DNA from: a virus
Virus record (IMG/VR): IMGVR_UViG_3300045988_025400
DNA: 41,551 nucleotides
Direction: 5' to 3' (one strand)
The notes under the pieces were generated by a model that had not been told where the DNA came from, did no database searches, and saw nothing but the letters and a program-made list of their open reading frames with translations. Each line of letters opens with the position of its first letter. Position 1 is the first letter of the stretch. Positions 15,975 through 36,110 of this stretch are shown here, piece after piece. Both the position numbers and the translations under genes were made by a program.

Positions 15975-17255
15975 TCACCATCCCATCATGTGACCGGCAC
16001 GCTCCAGGTCTTTGTAATATGGCTCAATGCTGTACTCAAAGGCATCCAAACTATCGATATCGGATGTGCCGTCATCCAAGCGCTCATCTTCAAACCTATC
16101 AGGATCATAAATTGCGGTTTGCAGCGCGTCGATCAGATGCGGGCAGCTCCGCGAAACCTTAAAGCGTCCCTGCTTCATCAGCAGCACCACCAGCCTGATT
16201 CTGTCTGTGATTTGCATTTTCAGCGCGTTCTTAACCTGCGTGCCAATGTGCATTTTCTGCGCGGTATGATCTAACCCACGAATCAATACTGTTTCCGCGC
16301 TATCTGCTCGTGTCTGACTGTATCCATACTTAGCCGTCACCATCTGGCAAAATGTGGCAAAACGCCGATTCAGGGCATCAGGGTCAATCTCCTCGTTTTT
16401 GATGTATTCCTCTTCCAACGCAACAACGCGAAAGTCCTTTGTAATACCGGTCGCCTGGAACTTTGTCGCAGACTTTGTGCCGCCGAAGTCAACGCCAATA
16501 GAAATAACGGTAAACCTTGTCCCGTTTTCTTCTGCCCATTTCAAAGGATCGTCAACCAGATACTTCTCCGTGTTATTGGCGAAATCCTTATATACCACTC
16601 CCTCCGCCGCCACCCACAAGCCGCGAACATAGCGGGCATAGAAAATACCGGCATACATATTTGCGTAGCGCTCAAGCGTTCTCGCACTCAAGCCGGGGTT
16701 ATCTGTCATCTCGAAGTGAAGATATAGCGTATTCCGTTCGCGGTGTCGCTTAATCCACTCCTGATAGAACCAGTGATGCGGGCTGCCGGGGTTACAGGAG
16801 AACCACAACCGCGCACCGTCAACGGAACAACGTGCAAGCGCCTGTTCCACAAACGAGCGCGGCATCAGCACCACCTCGTCCAGCAGCACACCCGCCAGCG
16901 TGCGGCCTTGAATCAGCGTATAGCTGGCCTCGTCCTTGCCGCCGAACACCTCAAAGTAATTCGTCACGGCGCCGCGCCGCACTTCCATCACCTTGTCGCC
17001 GCGCCGCCAGCGGATAATATAGCGCTCCTTTGCAAGGCTCATCGCCGTGAACGGAACGATGATGTTCTTGGTGCAGCTGTCCACCGTGCGGCCACACACA
17101 CCGAAGCGCTGACCGCTGAAATTCTCCATCGCCCAGCGGACGAACGCCCACATCATGATGGAGGTCTTGCCGGAACGCACAGCGCCGTCGCAGATCAGCG
17201 CGTCATACTTGGAATAGGGGAAAGCAAGGATCTTCTGCTGCTTCGGGCTAATCAT
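15975..17255 (-). CDS. terL: terminase large subunit (PBSX-type)
   Basis: Walker A motif DGAVRSGKTS, Walker B motif GVLLDEV, and a C-terminal nuclease half. ATG 17255 overlaps the terS stop by 8 nt. Confidence 0.9.
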   Translation of the reverse strand: MISPKQQKILAFPYSKYDALICDGAVRSGKTSIMMWAFVRWAMENFSGQRFGVCGRTVDSCTKNIIVPFTAMSLAKERYIIRWRRGDKVMEVRRGAVTNYFEVFGGKDEASYTLIQGRTLAGVLLDEVVLMPRSFVEQALARCSVDGARLWFSCNPGSPHHWFYQEWIKRHRERNTLYLHFEMTDNPGLSARTLERYANMYAGIFYARYVRGLWVAAEGVVYKDFANNTEKYLVDDPLKWAEENGTRFTVISIGVDFGGTKSATKFQATGITKDFRVVALEEEYIKNEEIDPDALNRRFATFCQMVTAKYGYSQTRADSAETVLIRGLDHTAQKMHIGTQVKNALKMQITDRIRLVVLLMKQGRFKVSRSCPHLIDALQTAIYDPDRFEDERLDDGTSDIDSLDAFEYSIEPYYKDLERAGHMMGW

Positions 17256-17616
17256 CGCTCTCCAACCCTTCTGCCATTTCACGCAGGCTCACGCTCAATG
17301 CGTCATCCTTTGTGTTGTCCGTCGGCAAACCCAGCTCAACAATATCACGCTGCCCAAGGTACTGTTTCCCCAGCCAAATAGCCATGCTTGCGTTCTTTGC
17401 CGCAAGCTGCCACTGGCTCCGACGCAGTGAAATTTTCCCAGCTCCGCGCTTTTGCTTAAATACCTCGGAAAAACTGGCATGATAGGTGCGTTTACACCAG
17501 CTGTCCAATGTTTTATCGGTCACATCAAACCAACCGCAGATTTCTTCAAGCGTGCATTGCAGGCCGCAGAGGTTTTCGAACTGCTTCTGGTCTATTTCCT
17601 TTCTTGGCCTTGCCAT
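17248..17616 (-). CDS. terS: terminase small subunit
   Basis: 122 aa. N-terminal HTH-like MARPRKEIDQKQFENLCGLQCTLEEICGWFDV and the conserved AIWLGKQYLGQRD. AGAAAGGAGGG RBS. Confidence 0.8.
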   Translation of the reverse strand: MARPRKEIDQKQFENLCGLQCTLEEICGWFDVTDKTLDSWCKRTYHASFSEVFKQKRGAGKISLRRSQWQLAAKNASMAIWLGKQYLGQRDIVELGLPTDNTKDDALSVSLREMAEGLESDD

Positions 17617-17711: not shown

Positions 17712-18905
17712 TCAATCGTCATTCAAAAGCACCGCTTTCTTCCCCGTAAACTTCTCCCACCGGTCAACAATGACATCGGCATACTTCGGATCATACTCCA
17801 TGCAGAAAGCGTGTCTGCCATTCTGCTCCGCTGCCATGATCGTTGTGCCGGACCCAGCGAACAGGTCAAGCACATTCTCGCCCGGCTTACTGGAGCACTG
17901 CATCTGGTAATCAAACAGCTTAATCGGCTTCATGGTCGGATGCTCCGCAGATTTGACAGGCTTATCAAAATTCAACACGGTTGTCTGTCTGCGGTTCTTG
18001 AAGAAATAATGCTTCTTACCTTCCGTCCATCCGTACAGACAAGGCTCGTGCGCTTCCTCTTCAATCTCGCTCTCACCATACAAGCAAGGCTCATGTTTCC
18101 ACTGGAAATCCTGTCTCCCCATCACAAGGGAGTTCTTCACCCAGATCAGGCACTGCCGGACACGCAGCATCGCATCTCTGCACGCGCCTCGGAAGTTATA
18201 CCCCTCGCTGTCTGCGTGCCAAATGTAAAATGGAGCGCCGGGTTTCATAACCATCGCCGCATTGGAAAACGCGTCCGTCAGGAACCGTCTAAATGCCGTA
18301 TCCTCCATATTGTCGTTCTTAATCTTCCCGGCGGTGCCCTGATAGTCCACATTGTACGGAGGGTCTGTGAGCAGCAAATCCATTTGTGCCCCCCCCACGA
18401 GCTTCTGTACGTCTGTCAAAGACGTGCTATCTCCGCACATAAGGCGATGGTCTCCAAGCTGGTACACATCGCCAAGTTTGCTCTTCGGCTCTGCTGGTAA
18501 AACAGGATCGTAGTTGTCCTCTACAACTGACGTGTCGAGTTCATCACGCAGCCCCCAATCAAAGTCAAACGCCGACAAATCCAGCCCAGGCAGTTCATCA
18601 GCCAGCAGGTCAAAGTCCCAATCGCTCTCGTTGCTCTTGTTGTCCACCAGCCGCAGGGCGTTTACCTGCTCCGGTGTCAGATCATCCACACAGACGCACG
18701 GCACTTCTTCCATGCCCAGCTTCTTTGCCGCCATAGCGCGGCAGTGGCCGATGACAATAACACCCTCTCGGTCAATCACAATCGGCTGCACGAACCCGTA
18801 CTGTTTAATGCTTTCGGCCACATTGTTGATTTGCCGTCTGTCGTGCTTCTTGGCATTTGCAGCATACGGCATAATATCCGCCAGCCGCTTGTTTTTTACT
18901 TCCAT
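17712..18905 (-). CDS. ParB-like nuclease domain fused to a beta-class amino (N6-A/N4-C) DNA methyltransferase
   Basis: N-terminal ParB/Srx-like region (...VIGHCRAMAAKKLG...). DPPY (motif IV) precedes FAGSGTT (motif I). Contains an in-frame G8 tract (18389-18396) and a duplicated HEPCLYG segment. Confidence 0.9.
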   Translation of the reverse strand: MEVKNKRLADIMPYAANAKKHDRRQINNVAESIKQYGFVQPIVIDREGVIVIGHCRAMAAKKLGMEEVPCVCVDDLTPEQVNALRLVDNKSNESDWDFDLLADELPGLDLSAFDFDWGLRDELDTSVVEDNYDPVLPAEPKSKLGDVYQLGDHRLMCGDSTSLTDVQKLVGGAQMDLLLTDPPYNVDYQGTAGKIKNDNMEDTAFRRFLTDAFSNAAMVMKPGAPFYIWHADSEGYNFRGACRDAMLRVRQCLIWVKNSLVMGRQDFQWKHEPCLYGESEIEEEAHEPCLYGWTEGKKHYFFKNRRQTTVLNFDKPVKSAEHPTMKPIKLFDYQMQCSSKPGENVLDLFAGSGTTIMAAEQNGRHAFCMEYDPKYADVIVDRWEKFTGKKAVLLNDD

Positions 18906-19401
18906 GTGGCCTCCTTTGCCTGACGCAGCGGCCTCCCACCACTGGCCTTTGTCATTGCCGCGTCCTTCCCCGGCTTTCGCCTCGCCTGTATTCCATGTCT
19001 CCCCTGGGTCACATTTTTAAGAGGTGCGGGAAGTCCTGTTTTATGTAAGCAGACTATTTGGGCCGCATCCCTTACAGCGGTCTGCCAGCGCATCGCCTGT
19101 TGTTTTACACAATCGGTCGGGTGCCACCACGCATCCATACTGTCCTACACAGCGGCTTTGTCCTAAGACAACCGCCACCACACCGCATCCACGCCTCGGA
19201 TTTCTTTCGGCACGCCGGCACCCGAACCAACCACGGACTTTTCAGCCCTGCGCCGGTACGTCGGTCGCATCCGTTTCTTCATTCACAGCCGGAGCCAGCC
19301 AAATAATTATTATTCGTCCTGCCGCTTTCGTACAGCGCACAGGAAAGACCACTTCCGCAGGCTTACGCTCCGTGCGGCTGCGAGGCAAGGGGCCACGCCT
19401 A
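18906..19401 (-). ncRNA. candidate large structured non-coding RNA (class unassigned; ROOL/GOLLD-like context)
   Basis: About 500 nt with no credible ORF, lying downstream (minus strand) of a tRNA-like element. GC-rich short helices with GNRA caps (e.g. GGC-GAAA-GCC at 18972-18981) and four copies of GGATGCG. Boundaries are not determined. Confidence 0.3.
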
Positions 19402-19480
19402 TGGTGCAGACAGCAAGATTTGAACTTGCGAACCCGAAAATTCTTCATATCGGAGCTGTATCCACCCAGCTTCTGCCTGC
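19402..19480 (-). tRNA. tRNA-like gene with encoded CCA and a non-canonical 8-nt anticodon loop
   Basis: Minus strand: GCAGGCA GA AGCT GGGTGGATAC AGCT C CGATA TGAAGAAT TTTCG GGTTC GCAAG TTCAAAT CTTGC TGTCTGC A CCA. The acceptor, D and T arms are canonical. The anticodon stem has a U-U mismatch, the loop is 8 nt, and position 8 is G. Confidence 0.55.
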
Positions 19481-19621
19481 ATATTGCTCCCTCCGGGCGG
19501 AGCCGAAGCCCCGCCCATCAGGAAAAGAAGGGGGAAAAGAAAAAGAATGGAGATGCAGAGTTCGCCCCTGCACCCCCACGTTATCACATCTTTTTTTGTT
19601 GTTGCATTTCGTTGTGCAACA

Positions 19622-19846
19622 TCACCTAATTTCTGCGTTTACATACGGTGCATACTCTTCTTTTATCGCACATTCTTTCAGCGGGCAGTACCGGCAGTTT
19701 TTAGCAAAGGGGCACTCGCGCCGTTCTGCTCTGGATATACAGCGAGATACAGTGGATGTGCTTACACCAAAATGCCGTGCAATCGTGCTCATGCGCCATC
19801 CGCACTCAAAGTATAGTCTCAAGTATTCGACCGTCTGCTCTTTCAC
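19622..19846 (-). CDS. HTH DNA-binding protein with Cys-rich C-terminus (possible late-gene regulator)
   Basis: GTG 19846 after GGAGGAGGTGG, overlapping the upstream stop (GTGA). HTH region: MSTIARHFGVSTSTVSRCISRAERR. Confidence 0.65.
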   Translation of the reverse strand: MKEQTVEYLRLYFECGWRMSTIARHFGVSTSTVSRCISRAERRECPFAKNCRYCPLKECAIKEEYAPYVNAEIR

Positions 19847-20037
19847 CCTACCACCTCCTCCGGGAAGAATGTCTCCCGCACCCCGCCGCACTCCGCCACG
19901 ATGTACCGCCCCTTCGGATGCACGTACACCACCGTGCCCTTGCGGATGGGGAACCGCTTTTCATCGTTGGCGCCGGAGCCGGGGTACTCGCTCGGCAGCG
20001 TCATAAACCGCGCCCGGATCGTGTCACCCTTCTGCAT
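19843..20037 (-). CDS. hypothetical protein (64 aa)
   Basis: ORF from the track, in an overlapping chain with its neighbours. Confidence 0.55.
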   Translation of the reverse strand: MQKGDTIRARFMTLPSEYPGSGANDEKRFPIRKGTVVYVHPKGRYIVAECGGVRETFFPEEVVG

Positions 20038-31898: not shown

Positions 31899-32062
31899 GT
31901 GCTTGCAGGTGACGTCACGACGTCCCTGCCGGGGCTCCGGTGTCCGTTGCGGGAGCATCGGAGCCTCGTTAACTACCGTACCTTCAAGCAATAAAGTAGC
32001 GTTGACACGGATACAATGTATCGGGGTCTGGTTTTTTGTAACGTTTTTCAAGCCACAAGCCC

Positions 32063-32091
32063 ATTATAAACCTAACAAAGTTAACAGTCAA
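32063..32091 (-). promoter_or_regulatory. leftward near-consensus promoter (toward the cro-like gene)
   Basis: Minus strand: TTGACT (32086-32091), 17-nt spacer, TATAAT (32063-32068). The spacer contains TAACAAAGT (32073-32081). A third, inverted copy TTAACAAACT lies at 32104-32113. Confidence 0.55.
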
Positions 32092-32133
32092 GCCAAATTG
32101 TAAAGTTTGTTAAGTTTTGTCGTGTTGCACAAA

Positions 32134-32478
32134 ATGGAGGGCTTATTTTTGTTCTATTCTAACTATGTGAAACTATGCAGCAAACTTAACAAGTCTCCGT
32201 CTGCCGTGGGCGAAGAATTGGGTTTTACCAGAGCGTCTGTAACCGGATGGGGAAACGGTGCAACTCCACGGAAATCGTCTCTTATAAAAATTGCCGATTA
32301 TTTTGGCGTTACCGTCGCAGAACTGATGTCCGGAGTAGGCGAACAAGAAAAAGCCCCCGCCGCAAAGGGCGAGGGCTCAAAAGAAGCTGCATCAAACTTT
32401 ATTAAAGCTACAAATGATCGTGCGGCGTTGTTGGCTCTTATCAACGAAGCCACGAAGAAACTACAGGAGCTGGAATAA
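32134..32478 (+). CDS. CI-like XRE-family repressor (no peptidase domain)
   Basis: YSNYVKLCSKLNKSPSAVGEELGFTRASVTGWGNGATPRKSSLIKIADYFGVTVAEL. Start is ATG 32134 or TTG 32149 (after TGGAGGG). Confidence 0.75.
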   Translation: MEGLFLFYSNYVKLCSKLNKSPSAVGEELGFTRASVTGWGNGATPRKSSLIKIADYFGVTVAELMSGVGEQEKAPAAKGEGSKEAASNFIKATNDRAALLALINEATKKLQELE

Positions 32479-32669
32479 TGCCTACACTATATCCTACCGA
32501 TCCGCAAGACTGGCTGCGAACGGAAGCGGAACGGAAAGACAAAGAACAGGAGCGCAAAGAAAAAGCCGACAAGGAGCGCCGTGAGAAAACACGGTTTATT
32601 ATTACAACTGTTCTTTTGGCTGTTGCGGCAATCGCTGCTGTTGCAGGAGTGATAATTCAACTTGCTTGA
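32478..32669 (+). CDS. small tail-anchored membrane protein co-translated with the repressor
   Basis: TAATG overlap with the repressor stop and an AGGAG RBS. Charged K/E/R N-terminus, then TM helix FIITTVLLAVAAIAAVAGVIIQLA. Confidence 0.6.
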   Translation: MPTLYPTDPQDWLRTEAERKDKEQERKEKADKERREKTRFIITTVLLAVAAIAAVAGVIIQLA

Positions 32670-32796
32670 GCGCGATCAGCGTATCAAGTTTGTCTGTAAT
32701 CCCTTTTAGGCCAAACACAACATCGTTGATCTGGCCTTTCATGATAATGCTGTTTTCAGCCAGCCTATCAATGTAAATCTCGTAGTCTTTGCTCAT
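32602..32796 (-). CDS. hypothetical small protein (64 aa), AT-rich
   Basis: ORF from the track. ATG overlaps the stop of 32793..32960. Its 3' end overlaps the convergent plus-strand gene by 68 nt. Confidence 0.4.
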   Translation of the reverse strand: MSKDYEIYIDRLAENSIIMKGQINDVVFGLKGITDKLDTLIALKQVELSLLQQQRLPQQPKEQL

Positions 32797-32960
32797 AGCA
32801 CACCTCTTTCTTTTAACGTACTCATAATATCAGCGCAGTCCTCATCGGAAAGCTGGTCGATTTTTCTAAGGGCTATTCTCCGCAACGTTTCAATATCACA
32901 TTGCGCCAATGCATCTGTTTTTATTATACCCCAGGCGTTGGCATTTGTGCAAGAACTCAT
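32793..32960 (-). CDS. hypothetical small protein (55 aa), AT-rich
   Basis: MSSCTNANAWGIIKTDALAQCDIETLRRIALRKIDQLSDEDCADIMSTLKERGVL. GGGGAGAGAA RBS. Below the track cutoff. Confidence 0.4.
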   Translation of the reverse strand: MSSCTNANAWGIIKTDALAQCDIETLRRIALRKIDQLSDEDCADIMSTLKERGVL

Positions 32961-33090
32961 TTCTCTCCCCTTTCTTAATTTGACATATTATTTTCTCGGT
33001 GTACAACTAAGTTAGTACACTTATAGTTACGCACAAGCTGTTTGTTGCCCACAAATGGGCAACACATTGAAAATTTTTTGGGGGTCTAAA

Positions 33091-33987
33091 ATGAAAAGGC
33101 ATCGTAAACTAAAGGCTGTAGCTATTTTTGTTCTCACTTTGTTTTTTACCATTATAGCGTTGTTGCTTATTCCTTCCGCAAGTGTTCCACAAGCAGACGG
33201 AACGGCAATGCTTACTTATGGCGCGGCCGTAGCTCTTATTATTGTCCCGTCCGCGTTTACAGCACTGTTTGTGTGGCTTGATAAGCGCGTTGAAAAAGCA
33301 AGCTTGCCGCAAGAGCCTTTTATTACTGCCAATGGCGAAGCCCACGATCCGATTATACCGGATGCAATAAAAGTGGTCATGGAAACCGGGCAAGCGTCCG
33401 TTTCTATGCTGCAGCGTAAGCTCAATCTTGGGTATTCTCAAGCCTTACGATTGATCGACGAGATGGAAACGCTGGGTATTGTCGGCCCGTTCAAAGGTTC
33501 TCGGCCTCGGCAAATATTGCTTACGCGGTCACAATGCGAAGCGCTTATTCCAACGCTTAAAATTGCTCGCGCAAATTCATGTTTCGCGCCTTGTGAAGCA
33601 AGCAATCCGGAAGCAGAGCTATACAAAGTAGATGGAATGGAAGGGCACGATTTTGAGTATTGGTGTGCAGACCTTCTAAAGAAAAACGGTTTCTCCAATG
33701 TTGAAGTCACACGTGGCAGCGGAGATCAGGGCGTTGACGTCCTTGCTAAATTTGGCGATGCCAAATATGCCATTCAATGTAAGTGCTATTCTTTCGATTT
33801 AGGAAACAAGCCGGTGCAGGAAGTAAATGCTGGAAAAGCATTTTACCGTTGTCATATTGGGGTTGTAATGACAAATAGGTATTTTACAGCAGGCGCGAAA
33901 GAAATTGCGGAAGCAACCGGCGTTTTGCTGTGGGATAGGGATACGCTTAAGCGCTTGATTAAAAATGGGGGGCGTAATGATGATTAA
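33091..33987 (+). CDS. membrane-anchored FtsK-gamma winged-helix / Mrr-type (PD-(D/E)xK) restriction endonuclease fusion
   Basis: Two TM helices (AVAIFVLTLFFTIIALLLIP and AAVALIIVPSAFTALFVWL). FtsK-gamma pattern ASVSMLQRKLNLGYSQALRLIDEMETLGIVGPFKGSRPRQIL. Mrr_cat pattern GHDFEYWCADLLKKNGF..GSGDQGVDVLA..YAIQCKCY. Start is ATG 33091 (GGGGG RBS) rather than 33055. Confidence 0.85.
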   Translation: MKRHRKLKAVAIFVLTLFFTIIALLLIPSASVPQADGTAMLTYGAAVALIIVPSAFTALFVWLDKRVEKASLPQEPFITANGEAHDPIIPDAIKVVMETGQASVSMLQRKLNLGYSQALRLIDEMETLGIVGPFKGSRPRQILLTRSQCEALIPTLKIARANSCFAPCEASNPEAELYKVDGMEGHDFEYWCADLLKKNGFSNVEVTRGSGDQGVDVLAKFGDAKYAIQCKCYSFDLGNKPVQEVNAGKAFYRCHIGVVMTNRYFTAGAKEIAEATGVLLWDRDTLKRLIKNGGRNDD

Positions 33988-33995
33988 AGTAAGCA

Positions 33996-34034
33996 AATAG
34001 CCCCGCTGCTCCCGCAACGGACAGCGGGGCTATT
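33996..34034 (+). terminator. strong hairpin after the nuclease gene (terminator candidate without a U-tract)
   Basis: 13-bp perfect stem aatagccccgctg / cagcggggctatt with a 13-nt loop. No T-run follows. Confidence 0.35.
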
Positions 34035-34089
34035 CTCGCCGGTGGCCTCCCGGCTTTCCGGCTGCACGTTCACACTAACAAATTAGGGT

Positions 34090-34118
34090 TTGGCAGGGCA
34101 ATACCAAATTCGGATAAT
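34090..34118 (+). promoter_or_regulatory. promoter candidate for the XRE-TM / integrase operon
   Basis: TTGGCA, 17-nt spacer, GATAAT, about 60 nt upstream of ATG 34180. Confidence 0.4.
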
Positions 34119-34179
34119 TACCGTTTGCGGCAAAACAGAATTGGGATTCTCCTGCCCGAAAAAGGAGTAAAAGGGGAAA

Positions 34180-34791
34180 ATGGTAAAAACATTGCAGGAT
34201 TTGTGCAGGGATGCAAAAGACCGACAGAATTTAACTATACAAGATTTGTCCGACATGACGGACATTTCAGCATCAACCATAAGCAATTTTTTCTCCGCAT
34301 CATCAAAGGAGCCGAGCGTATACAAAATGGGTTTAATTTGTGCCGCGCTTGGCGTTTCAATAGATGAATATTTCGGGATTGAAAAAGAAGTGACAACGGA
34401 AGATCAATTGACGAAAGCCAATGAACAGTTGAAGCACCAAAAGCAGCTGCATGATGCCGATGTGCAAATAGCCCATCTTGAGGGAAGCATGGAGCAGATG
34501 GCAAAAACCATTAACTACCACCGCAAGAAATCGCGGGACACAAAATTTGCTATTTATGGCCTTACGTTTTTGTGCGCCATATTTATGGCTGTTATCGTGG
34601 GCTATATCTTTTTTGACTACCGTATCCCCCACCAGGGGCTTATTCAGGGCGGAGAGGCCAGCATATTCGCATGGATCGTCTTTTTGCTGCTTGCAGTCGG
34701 TATTGGCTTTTTTGCCGCTATTTTGATGATGTATTTTCGCTATGCAAAAAAGTATACATTGTCGCCAGATAAGGGAGGAGATAAACAATGA
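34180..34791 (+). CDS. membrane-anchored XRE-family HTH protein
   Basis: N-terminal HTH (LTIQDLSDMTDISASTISNFFS), a coiled-coil linker, and two C-terminal TM helices (FAIYGLTFLCAIFMAVIVGYIFF and IFAWIVFLLLAVGIGFFAAILMMYF). Its stop overlaps the integrase ATG. Confidence 0.8.
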   Translation: MVKTLQDLCRDAKDRQNLTIQDLSDMTDISASTISNFFSASSKEPSVYKMGLICAALGVSIDEYFGIEKEVTTEDQLTKANEQLKHQKQLHDADVQIAHLEGSMEQMAKTINYHRKKSRDTKFAIYGLTFLCAIFMAVIVGYIFFDYRIPHQGLIQGGEASIFAWIVFLLLAVGIGFFAAILMMYFRYAKKYTLSPDKGGDKQ

Positions 34792-36110
34792 GTGTAGTAT
34801 TGCGGGCAGCATTATACCCGCGTGTGTCCACAGAAGAGCAGAAAAAGTTTGGCTTGTCTATTCACGATCAGCAGAACGACCTCGAAAAATACGCCAAAGC
34901 CCACAATATGAAGGTGGTAGGCGTTTTCCAGGATGCCGGGTTTTCCGCCAGAAAGAAGATTGAAAAGCGTCCCGCCATGCTTCAACTGCTGGAAGCCGTA
35001 AAGCATGATGAGGTAGACATTATTCTTGTCACAAAGCTGGACAGGTGGTTTCGTAACATCGGTGAATATTACAAGGTGCAGGAAATTCTTGAAGCCCACA
35101 ACGTGTCGTGGAAAACGATTTATGAGGACTATGACACGTCTACAGCCGCAGGCCGGTTGAAGATCAACATCATGCTTGCCGTAGCACAGGACGAAGCTGA
35201 CCGCGCCAGTGAACGCATAAAAAAAGTGCTTGATGCAAAAAAAGATCGAAATGAGGTTTGCACCGGTCATCTGCCAAAAGGCTACAAAATCGAAGGAAAA
35301 TTTGCTGTTATAGACAAAGAAGCGGAGCCGGTTATACGGAGATATTTTTCTACATTTTTGGAAACCGGCTCCATAACAAAAGCGATGGACGCAGTACCGG
35401 AATTAAAACTTAAATACCAAACGGCCAGCCAAATGTTGGACAACACAGGATACATGGGAGACTGGCACGGGATAAAATTACCCCCGTATTTAACACCGCA
35501 GGAATTTCAGCGTGTGCAAGACTTACGCACGAGGGTGACGCGAAAATCCCCTTACAATCGAACGTATATTTTCTCGGGGGTAATAGTCTGCGGGGAATGC
35601 GGACGCAGAATGACAGGGCATCCGTCTCCACGCCCAAGCGGGGCGTGCTCTTACTCTTACTATTGTCAAGGGTCTGCCCAGAGAAAAGGATGCAACAACG
35701 GTAATTTTACTGTCGAATGGAAAATCGAAGATTATCTCTTGTCGACAATAGACGAGCAGATACAGATCAAATTGCAAGCCAAGCCGCGGCAAGAACCCAA
35801 AGTAAACCAAGATGTGCAATTAAAGACTTTACAAAAAAAACTATCCAAGTTGTCAGAGTTATATATAGACGACATGATTTCAAAGTCGGACTACTCAAAA
35901 AAGTATGCAGAACTGACATCACAAATGGATGAGATTACACAAGTAAAATCACAAAGCCGCGCACCAGAAGAAATTGCAACCTTATTTTCCGCAGGATGGC
36001 AAGAAATATACAAACAACTTAACAAAGAAAATAAACAAGCATTTTGGAAACTCAAAATAAAAGAAATCCGGCTATACAAAGACCGCCGGATTGAATTTGA
36101 TTTTCTGTAA
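34788..36110 (+). CDS. int: large serine recombinase (phage integrase)
   Basis: Resolvase catalytic domain AALYPRVSTEEQ...DRWFRN, a recombinase domain, a zinc ribbon CGECGRRM...C, and a C-terminal coiled coil. Confidence 0.92.
   Translation: MSVVLRAALYPRVSTEEQKKFGLSIHDQQNDLEKYAKAHNMKVVGVFQDAGFSARKKIEKRPAMLQLLEAVKHDEVDIILVTKLDRWFRNIGEYYKVQEILEAHNVSWKTIYEDYDTSTAAGRLKINIMLAVAQDEADRASERIKKVLDAKKDRNEVCTGHLPKGYKIEGKFAVIDKEAEPVIRRYFSTFLETGSITKAMDAVPELKLKYQTASQMLDNTGYMGDWHGIKLPPYLTPQEFQRVQDLRTRVTRKSPYNRTYIFSGVIVCGECGRRMTGHPSPRPSGACSYSYYCQGSAQRKGCNNGNFTVEWKIEDYLLSTIDEQIQIKLQAKPRQEPKVNQDVQLKTLQKKLSKLSELYIDDMISKSDYSKKYAELTSQMDEITQVKSQSRAPEEIATLFSAGWQEIYKQLNKENKQAFWKLKIKEIRLYKDRRIEFDFL

Follow-up and report, generated by a model that had tools for sequence, protein, structure and literature searches.

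The large structured phage RNAs of the ROOL and GOLLD type, which lie beside transfer RNA (tRNA) genes, are among the most striking of the bacterial RNAs to which no function has been assigned. Both are phage and prophage RNAs found near tRNA islands; ROOL measures about 580-660 nucleotides (nt) and GOLLD more than 800 nt, and both form cages with loop contacts between molecules (PMC12286853). Theta ribozymes adjoin the 3′ ends of phage tRNAs in gut phages (PMC10879173). Here, we describe the gap at positions 18906-19621 of a 41,551-nt stretch of viral DNA (IMG/VR record IMGVR_UViG_3300045988_025400; the whole stretch is called the window below). The minus strand of this gap encodes, at 19401-19102, a member of an apparently uncatalogued family of structured RNAs of about 300 nt from gut phages and prophages, which trails a tRNA-like element. 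In the tRNA cluster of phage T4, species 1 and 2 (rnaC/rnaD) are stable non-tRNA RNAs of about 120-140 nt, cotranscribed with the tRNAs and excised by tRNA-processing enzymes, and the tRNA-shaped mascRNA of MALAT1 is an RNase P/RNase Z processing signal for the neighbouring non-coding RNA, 3′ of which it lies. Neither has any sequence relation to the RNA described here, and the tRNA-like element is placed 5′ of the RNA in our locus, whereas in MALAT1 it is placed 3′.

At least 120 phage or prophage loci carry a homologue of the 300-nt RNA. The exact core 17-mer GGCGCAGGGCTGAAAAG occurs in more than 118 IMG/VR contigs, which is a lower bound, and a BLAST search against GenBank phages revealed two unannotated human-faecal phage records sharing 19431-19138 with the window. 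A covariance model reaching from helix Pa to the core (R1, 132 positions) detected a single copy in each true locus, scoring 72-148 bits (132 bits for the window copy, 19226-19355 on the minus strand), as against at most 22 bits for chance pattern matches in bacterial genomes, and no second divergent copy was found with it in 1.7 Mb of locus sequence. A scan of genome collections with a gapped core pattern returned chiefly chance matches in GC-rich genomes, the real ones being L145, L167 and L201. L145 is a metagenome-assembled genome (MAG) of Lawsonibacter and L167 a MAG of an uncultured Oscillospiraceae; MAGs with these two labels were the only named carriers found.

The position of the RNA relative to tRNAs is strikingly constant. 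In 43 loci ARAGORN called a same-strand tRNA whose 3′ end lies 142-176 nt before the start of the 17-mer, and thus the first hairpin starts 0-1 nt after the CCA end (about 25 nt after it in subfamily D). A downstream tRNA begins 153-228 nt after the 17-mer in 24 loci, and the RNA is oriented with the tRNA strand in all loci. If the 3′ end of the preceding tRNA is taken as its start and the downstream tRNAs as marking its 3′ limit, the element measures 301-375 nt, the window copy being 300 nt long. In subfamily E, it occupies the whole interval of 301-304 nt from tRNA-Gly to tRNA-Gln, and 9 nt separate the closing helix from the next tRNA. The RNA is frequently located within tRNA arrays, where the following tRNA comes about 9 nt after the tail. 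A gene for a small HU/IHF-like DNA-binding protein was seen 0.3-1.2 kb downstream in L001, L036 and L058, which represent three subfamilies; this neighbourhood may be a coincidence or may be recurrent.

At least seven subfamilies share a common architecture, with 5′ domains and helix sequences that diverge strongly. From 5′ to 3′ it consists of P1, P2, Pa with its loop La, an AU-rich linker, Pb, a purine-rich linker, the core, a 3′ domain bounded by helix Px, and a tail (Table 1). The most informative feature is a 5-bp kissing contact, in which positions 1-5 of La pair with positions 3-7 of the core loop Ld. Complementarity of the two loops was found in 77 of 77 distinct sequences, comprising nine loop classes, by a loop-motif association test; it replaced duplexfold energies computed between the core loop and the complete 52-nt Pa region, which were too noisy. 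The La:Ld pairings are GUACG:CGUAC in subfamily A, including the window, GUAUG:CAUAC in B and F, GUGCA:UGCAC in C, D and G, and CGCACA:UGUGCG in E, as well as GCGCG:UGCGC (L026), CUGCAU:AUGCAG (L008), CCGAA:UUCGG (L145) and AACUC:GAGUU (L201). In the model alignment (72 distinct rows), 99.4% of the cells of the kissing helix are paired, and double-sided changes affect four of its five pairs, for example C-G (42) versus U-A (28) and A-U (55) versus G-C (16).

The same holds for the scored structure as a whole. Paired cells amount to 94.6% in the MAFFT alignment (A2), compared with 33-43% in slid controls, and to 98.6% in the model alignment (A3), compared with 29-40%. The covariation score reached 0.203 against 0.105 for shuffled data in A2 and 0.160 against 0.080 in A3, and in neither case was a score as high obtained in any of 500 shuffles. 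Within Pb, a U.G pair is invariant in 32 of 32 and 71 of 71 aligned sequences. The only double-sided Pb change in the MAFFT alignment is from G-C to U.G; this alignment misses the compensatory Pb changes in L107 and L145, which were read by eye in the raw sequences. Other helices also contain G.U pairs, consistent with strand specificity. The 3′ domain is closed by Px, which exists in 13 unrelated sequence versions; its cognate arms pair at -29.2 +/- 4.3 kcal/mol, compared with -13.7 +/- 5.4 kcal/mol for non-cognate arms taken from RNAs with dissimilar helices. RNAalifold also gave a hairpin, Pz, whose stem occurs as GGCGG/CCGCU, AACGG/CCGUU, ACCGG/CCGGU, GACGC/GCGUC and ACGCC/GGCGU. At the 5′ end, the assignments are tentative, including that of a candidate pseudoknot in which the P1 loop would pair with the segment before Pa; its changes are mostly compatible rather than compensatory. 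In L021 (3046-3177), the 5′ part and the core are kept and the entire 3′ domain is swapped for an unrelated sequence, so this may be a recombinant or decayed copy.

The core of about 45 nt is near-invariant. Although the 5′ half of the core was not part of the scan pattern, 114 of about 117 true 17-mer matches contain the segment ACGGATGCGA(C/T)C. Scans for core variants gave no match with a change at the 17th position and a single chance match, with no real variant, at U113; of two matches at C112, one was due to chance and the other, L242, is real, with a C to U change that keeps a U.G pair. Judged from these matches, the invariance of the core is not solely a result of ascertainment. Since Pc, Pd and Pe are invariant, covariation neither supports nor contradicts them. 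For the RNA as a whole, the alignments demonstrate, on comparative grounds, conservation, strand specificity and a loop-loop tertiary contact. The preliminary description of this DNA, made by eye, had proposed a large structured RNA in the gap and named as grounds against it the lack of a covariance-model match together with a lack of compensatory changes among homologues or, alternatively, an intact frame or 3-nt periodic conservation. Compensatory changes proved to be strong, so the first of these grounds does not refute a structured RNA, and no 3-nt periodicity was found.

The possibility that the region codes for protein has to be considered because a stop-free frame covers most of it in many homologues. 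In the gap there is a long antisense open reading frame (ORF) of 201 aa at 19024-19629 on the plus strand; small minus-strand ORFs were also considered. No ORF within the gap has a Pfam match. The antisense ORF and its equivalent in L001 have the same residues in two blocks, with a different frame across the nucleotide-invariant core, and the ORF runs antisense through the tRNA-like element. Moreover, the variable alignment columns are free of 3-nt periodicity (34/32/30), and 540 of 739 internal gap runs in the homologue alignment are not multiples of three. The antisense ORF is an artefact, and a coding reading is effectively refuted, in agreement with the preliminary description, which had called the gap gene-free and its ORFs artefacts.

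The tRNA-like element preceding the RNA, referred to below as the handle, is a cloverleaf with a 7-bp acceptor stem, a D arm, a T arm (GCAAG-UUCAAAU-CUUGC), the discriminator A and an encoded CCA. It scored 24.2 bits (E=0.025) with the Rfam tRNA model (RF00005), below the cut-off of 29 bits, and ARAGORN called no tRNA or tmRNA gene in the window. Its anticodon loop has 8 nt (UGAAGAAU) with G at position 33 instead of U33, and the anticodon stem contains a U.U mismatch; from its sequence, this cloverleaf is incapable of decoding. Acceptor pairs covary between the window and L002 (A-U to G-C and G.U to A-U), and the handle junction, with U at -1 and G at +1, is of the RNase P type. In other loci, the equivalent position is taken by true tRNAs or by non-canonical tRNA-likes, all ending in NCCA. 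The identity of the upstream tRNA varies (Gly, Trp, Met, Ser, Thr, Phe and Cys), and loci in which ARAGORN found none have a structured module with an NCCA end in its place. Examples of non-canonical handles are the cloverleaf of the window, a 72-nt tRNA-like lacking the anticodon stem, variants with a long arm replacing the anticodon arm, and a four-way junction of about 93 nt ending in GCCGUACCA. These modules are missed by ARAGORN and Rfam, and all keep the acceptor stem and NCCA. Families of such modules were seen about 95 nt upstream of the RNA in L004, L053, L076 and L078, and also in L022/L024/L044/L069 and in L001/L009/L041. Rfam Plastid-ycf2 matches at E ~1e-3 lie antisense to tRNAs or tRNA-likes in the window (19404-19476, plus strand), L003, L024, L070 and L106 and are a model artefact.

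Searches with Rfam 15 returned no known family for the RNA. In the window, no family matched the RNA at gathering thresholds, and a permissively filtered search of 18600-19900 at E<=10 gave no match to ROOL, GOLLD, HEARO, raiA, tmRNA, RNase P or pRNA. At E<=1, the element had no family match in 14 homologous loci from five subfamilies, and over the window and 29 homologous loci, at gathering and at permissive E-values, only tRNAs were found. Group I and II introns, HDV-family ribozymes and riboswitches gave no Rfam 15 match to the element. ARAGORN was likewise negative for tmRNA. As for the literature, the core sequence is not printed in the sources searched, and no match was present in the 200 files covered of the 408 in bulk candidate-RNA supplements. 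A preprint on Minerva concerns unrelated arrays.

The preliminary description had pointed to the ROOL and GOLLD classes and listed HEARO, raiA, tmRNA and RNase P for searching. The niche was well chosen, as this is a phage RNA tied to a tRNA-like element; by the covariance-model searches, the RNA belongs to none of these families. A divergent ROOL (RF03087) or GOLLD (RF01998) RNA is a highly improbable explanation. Like ROOL, the RNA is encoded by phages and prophages beside tRNA islands and has a multi-helix fold with tertiary loop contacts (PMC12286853). Like GOLLD, it occurs in tRNA arrays; GOLLD can have tRNAs covalently linked to it and combines a conserved 3′ part with a variable 5′ part (PMC12286853), and the pattern of a conserved core with a variable 5′ part in our family resembles this by analogy only. 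On the other hand, neither model matched at any of the above settings, including E<=10 over 1.3 kb, and a length of about 300 nt is far from the 580-660 and >800 nt of these classes (PMC12286853). ROOL is about twice as long, has other helices and motifs and has not been reported as fused at 0-1 nt to a tRNA CCA, while tRNAs linked to GOLLD are in an internal linker, in contrast to the tRNA or tRNA-like that always immediately precedes the present RNA.

With the packaging RNA of phi29 (RF00044), which had no covariance-model match in the window, the RNA has in common a junction core and a pair of loops that covary so as to stay complementary, and here it stands upstream of packaging genes. However, it is twice the size, its carriers are tailed phages with terS and terL, and many copies are far from packaging genes. 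Complementary, covarying loops could pair in cis or, as in the ring of phi29 pRNA, between molecules, and in the latter case the RNA could form a homo-oligomer of the pRNA, ROOL or GOLLD kind with tRNA-shaped appendages.

Based on these results, we suggest, as somewhat better than an even bet, that the locus encodes a new class of phage tRNA-island RNA, which would be matured by tRNA-processing enzymes via its handle. We infer that selection acts on the RNA as the payload, with the handle serving as a module for its processing or stability. The acceptor/T minihelix, U(-1)/G(+1) and ACCA are determinants for bacterial RNase P and tRNA 3′-end enzymes. In the window and in many relatives, these are the parts that the handle has kept, the usable anticodon arm having been lost. 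Transcription probably starts near 19590, just upstream of a leader hairpin, and the transcript would have to read through this hairpin and its U-tract. RNase P would cut 5′ of G19480, and the product may be a stable RNA of about 300 nt, or of about 380 nt if the handle remains attached. Within arrays, the 3′ end would be generated when RNase P cuts at the following tRNA; with tRNAs on either side there, the RNA would be freed as a separate species by tRNA processing. The near-invariance of the core suggests sequence-specific recognition of a conserved partner, which it most likely binds in trans.

Theta ribozymes are about 50-60 nt long. A second explanation of the constant junction is that the RNA is a cis-acting self-cleaving RNA with a new fold, which cuts at the CCA junction and so matures both the tRNA 3′ end and its own 5′ end. 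The strict 0-1 nt distance to NCCA in most subfamilies, whatever the tRNA identity, and the near-invariant core with its tertiary contact would fit such a role. There is also a precedent in the theta ribozymes, which start within a few nucleotides of phage tRNA 3′ ends of many identities in human-gut Caudoviricetes (PMC10879173). However, those have a minimal HDV-like fold, a nested double pseudoknot (P1, P1.1, P2, P3 and P4) with a catalytic cytosine in J4/2 and a cleavage site within 5 nt of the tRNA 3′ end, whereas the present RNA, at about 300 nt, does not satisfy an HDV-like descriptor: with a permissive version applied to 16 representatives, 13 had no match at the junction and 3 had inconsistent internal matches. 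The Rfam ribozyme models were silent, the stretch from the junction to the core is the least conserved of the whole RNA, and many upstream partners are tRNA-likes incapable of decoding, for which tRNA maturation cannot be the selected function. We therefore regard self-cleavage as quite unlikely, and the same holds for its more specific form, in which the core of a new catalytic or self-processing RNA, placed by the kissing contact, would cleave or otherwise act on the NCCA junction with a fold unrelated to that of the theta ribozymes.

Several points weigh against maturation through the handle or against the novelty of the class. An encoded CCA is an anti-determinant for RNase Z, so an RNase Z cut is not expected, and separation of the RNA from the handle by this enzyme is disfavoured. 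The RNase P processing and the mature ends are inferred from sequence. The core helices Pc, Pd and Pe, being invariant, have no support from covariation, and in L145 one additional C would allow an alternative GGG:CCC pairing. All homologues were gathered via core sequence patterns, and the diversity of the family is under-sampled. The bulk candidate-RNA lists (PMC10690425, PMC8040213), of which part was covered, could contain the family as an unnamed candidate. Finally, in about half of the inspected loci (10 of 20), the RNA lies just upstream, within about 1-2 kb, of a ParB-methylase, terS or terL gene, as would fit a cis-acting leader.

Such a leader of a packaging or late operon, either an antitermination RNA of the put or EAR kind or an attenuator working with the helix-turn-helix (HTH)/sigma-like protein encoded upstream, is unlikely in our view. 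In its favour, the window RNA is located between a minus-strand ORF with HTH and sigma-70 region 4 signatures, together with a terminator-like hairpin, and the ParB-methylase, terS and terL genes. Against it, other members are found in tRNA arrays with tRNAs on both sides, followed by unrelated genes (HU, helicase, PAPS-reductase-like); shuffled modules, one of them with a -10-like element, part the RNA from the methylase gene; and the fixed tRNA-like handle would have no obvious role. An element acting at the DNA level (cos or pac, an attP core at a tRNA 3′ end, or an origin) or a mobile insertion targeting tRNA 3′ ends is very unlikely. The identity starts at the tRNA T arm or CCA in some comparisons, the element is upstream of terS and its flanks are mosaic, which would fit such a reading. 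But compensatory changes keep RNA pairs, including G.U, which equals A.C on the other strand; RNA and tRNA always run in the same orientation; long-range loop-loop complementarity has no rationale in DNA; and no terminal repeats or target duplications were seen.

Around the RNA, the gap is a string of modules on the minus strand and not a single RNA of 716 nt. It is non-coding and is flanked by the HTH/sigma70-region-4 ORF and the ParB_N/methylase gene. Its GC content of 0.55-0.56 is close to that nearby (about 0.54), so it is not unusually rich in GC, contrary to its label, and its folding energy relative to shuffles is lower on the minus strand (z = -3.05) than on the plus strand (z = -2.12). 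Upstream of the handle lies a conserved cassette (19481-19600) composed of a -10-like TGTGATAAC, a terminator-like hairpin, a pyrimidine tract, a hairpin with a UUCG or GGCG loop and a linker ending in AAUAU. The stem of the last hairpin is invariant among relatives, in which TATCAT stands at the spot of the -10-like element. From one relative to another, both the tRNA-like handle after the cassette and the genes before it differ; the cassette resembles a terminator or attenuator placed close to a promoter at the head of the transcription unit. The pyrimidine tract, which had been given as 27 nt at 19521-19547 and extends over 28 nt as the tail of the terminator-like hairpin, and the 9-bp helix closed by UUCG are both present as described, but they belong to this cassette. 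The cloverleaf ending in CCA was also correctly located, although it is sub-threshold as a tRNA.

Downstream of the RNA, three modules (M1, M2 and M3) shuffle independently among phages and lie outside the RNA family. Of the roughly 500 nt of short helices read in the preliminary description, 19401-19102 is indeed conserved structured RNA and mosaic leader modules make up the remaining 200 nt or so; the hairpin GGC-GAAA-GCC (18972-18981) exists but sits in M3, apart from the RNA. What stands of the large structured RNA is a minus-strand, covarying RNA linked to a tRNA-like element, with a size of about 300 nt (about 380 nt with the handle). M2 contains a -10-like TAAAAAT and a weak match to an abiF motif (E=0.97), and this middle block may represent a late promoter or a site related to packaging. 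In many B- and F-type loci (for example L002, L004, L019 and L033), a module GCCCUUCGGGGCGGGUAAAGUCUGCUAUGUAAGGCCAAGGGGCGGGGGC directly follows the RNA tail; it has AGUCUGCU in common with M1.

Two further observations concern the window at large. Positions 18788-19584 are 99.7% identical to L005 (IMGVR_UViG_3300045988_001826) over the region, and this record is probably of the same human-gut phage lineage. At 32000-36000, the GC content falls to about 0.44-0.46 and the GC skew flips sign relative to the rest of the window, which suggests a module of different origin or an opposite coding strand.

Table 1. Positions of the RNA, its parts and the neighbouring features in the window.
Feature	Position	Strand	Basis or remark
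Conserved structured "tRNA-trailing" RNA, ~300 nt	19102-19401	-	Homologues, flanking tRNA bounds, covariation
Variable 5′ domain	19356-19400	-	Tentative; stems differ yet pair in subfamilies A, B, C and F by alignment inspection
P1, AGGC/GCCU, loop GUGGCCCCUU	19400-19383	-	Tentative
P2, CGCAG/CUGCG, GCGUAAG loop motif	19382-19356	-	Tentative
Pa, CCUG-UG-CGCU / AGCG-G-CAGG	19318-19343	-	Double-sided changes in 7/8 stem pairs
La, 7-nt Pa loop, GUACGAA	19333-19327	-	
Pb, GGCUG-GCUC-CGGCU	19287-19300	-	Covariation alignments
Near-invariant core, ~45 nt	19233-19274	-	ACGGA-UGCGACC-[8-nt loop Ld]-GGCGCA-GG-GCUGAAAAGU-UCCGU
Pc, ACGGA/UCCGU; Pd, UGCG-A-CC/GG-CGCA; Pe, GCU-GAAA-AGU	within 19233-19274	-	
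Ld, 8-nt Pd loop, GACGUACC	19262-19255	-	
3′ domain	19111-19232	-	120-170 nt across the family
Px, closing helix	19232-19210 with 19132-19111	-	15-22 bp; duplex energies
CGAGGCG motif	19198-19192	-	Inside Px
Pz, hairpin GGCGG/CCGCU	19176-19151	-	RNAalifold
GUGUAGG motif	19150-19144	-	Inside Px
Single-stranded tail GUGUAAAAC	19102-19110	-	Conserved, consensus GUG(A/U)AAA; next tRNA starts right after in arrays
tRNA-like handle (cloverleaf)	19402-19480	-	Rfam tRNA model, ARAGORN, sequence
9-bp GC hairpin, UUCG tetraloop	19495-19516	-	Sequence; part of conserved upstream cassette
28-nt pyrimidine tract, U-rich tail of leader hairpin	19520-19547	-	Sequence, terminator scan, conservation
Terminator-like leader hairpin GUGGGGGUGCAGGGGCGAACUCUGCAUCUCCAU	19547-19579	-	Terminator scan; kept in relatives with other upstream genes
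-10-like TGTGATAAC	just upstream of leader hairpin	-	Sequence
M1	19101-19037	-	Module-wise BLAST distribution
M2	19046-18995	-	Module-wise BLAST distribution
M3, with GAAA hairpin and methylase ribosome-binding site	18988-18910	-	Module-wise BLAST distribution
89-aa ORF, HTH/sigma-70 region 4 signatures	19622-19891	-	Pfam search
ParB_N + N6/N4 DNA methylase gene	17712-18905	-	Pfam search
terS	17248-17616		Downstream of methylase gene
terL	15975-17282		Downstream of methylase gene, after terS

If the proposed explanation is true, the niche of ROOL and GOLLD would hold a third, unrelated and smaller class of RNA, abundant in human-gut phages. The loop-loop contact can be broken and restored by mutation, which makes the RNA experimentally tractable, and its fixed fusion to a tRNA-shaped handle that outlasts the loss of decoding is a second tractable feature. 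Partner pull-downs, ribozyme assays and structural work can be aimed at the near-invariant core as a defined target. The persistence of the handle points to a functional link with the tRNA-processing or tRNA-binding machinery, and this link may help to explain why such RNAs cluster with tRNAs.

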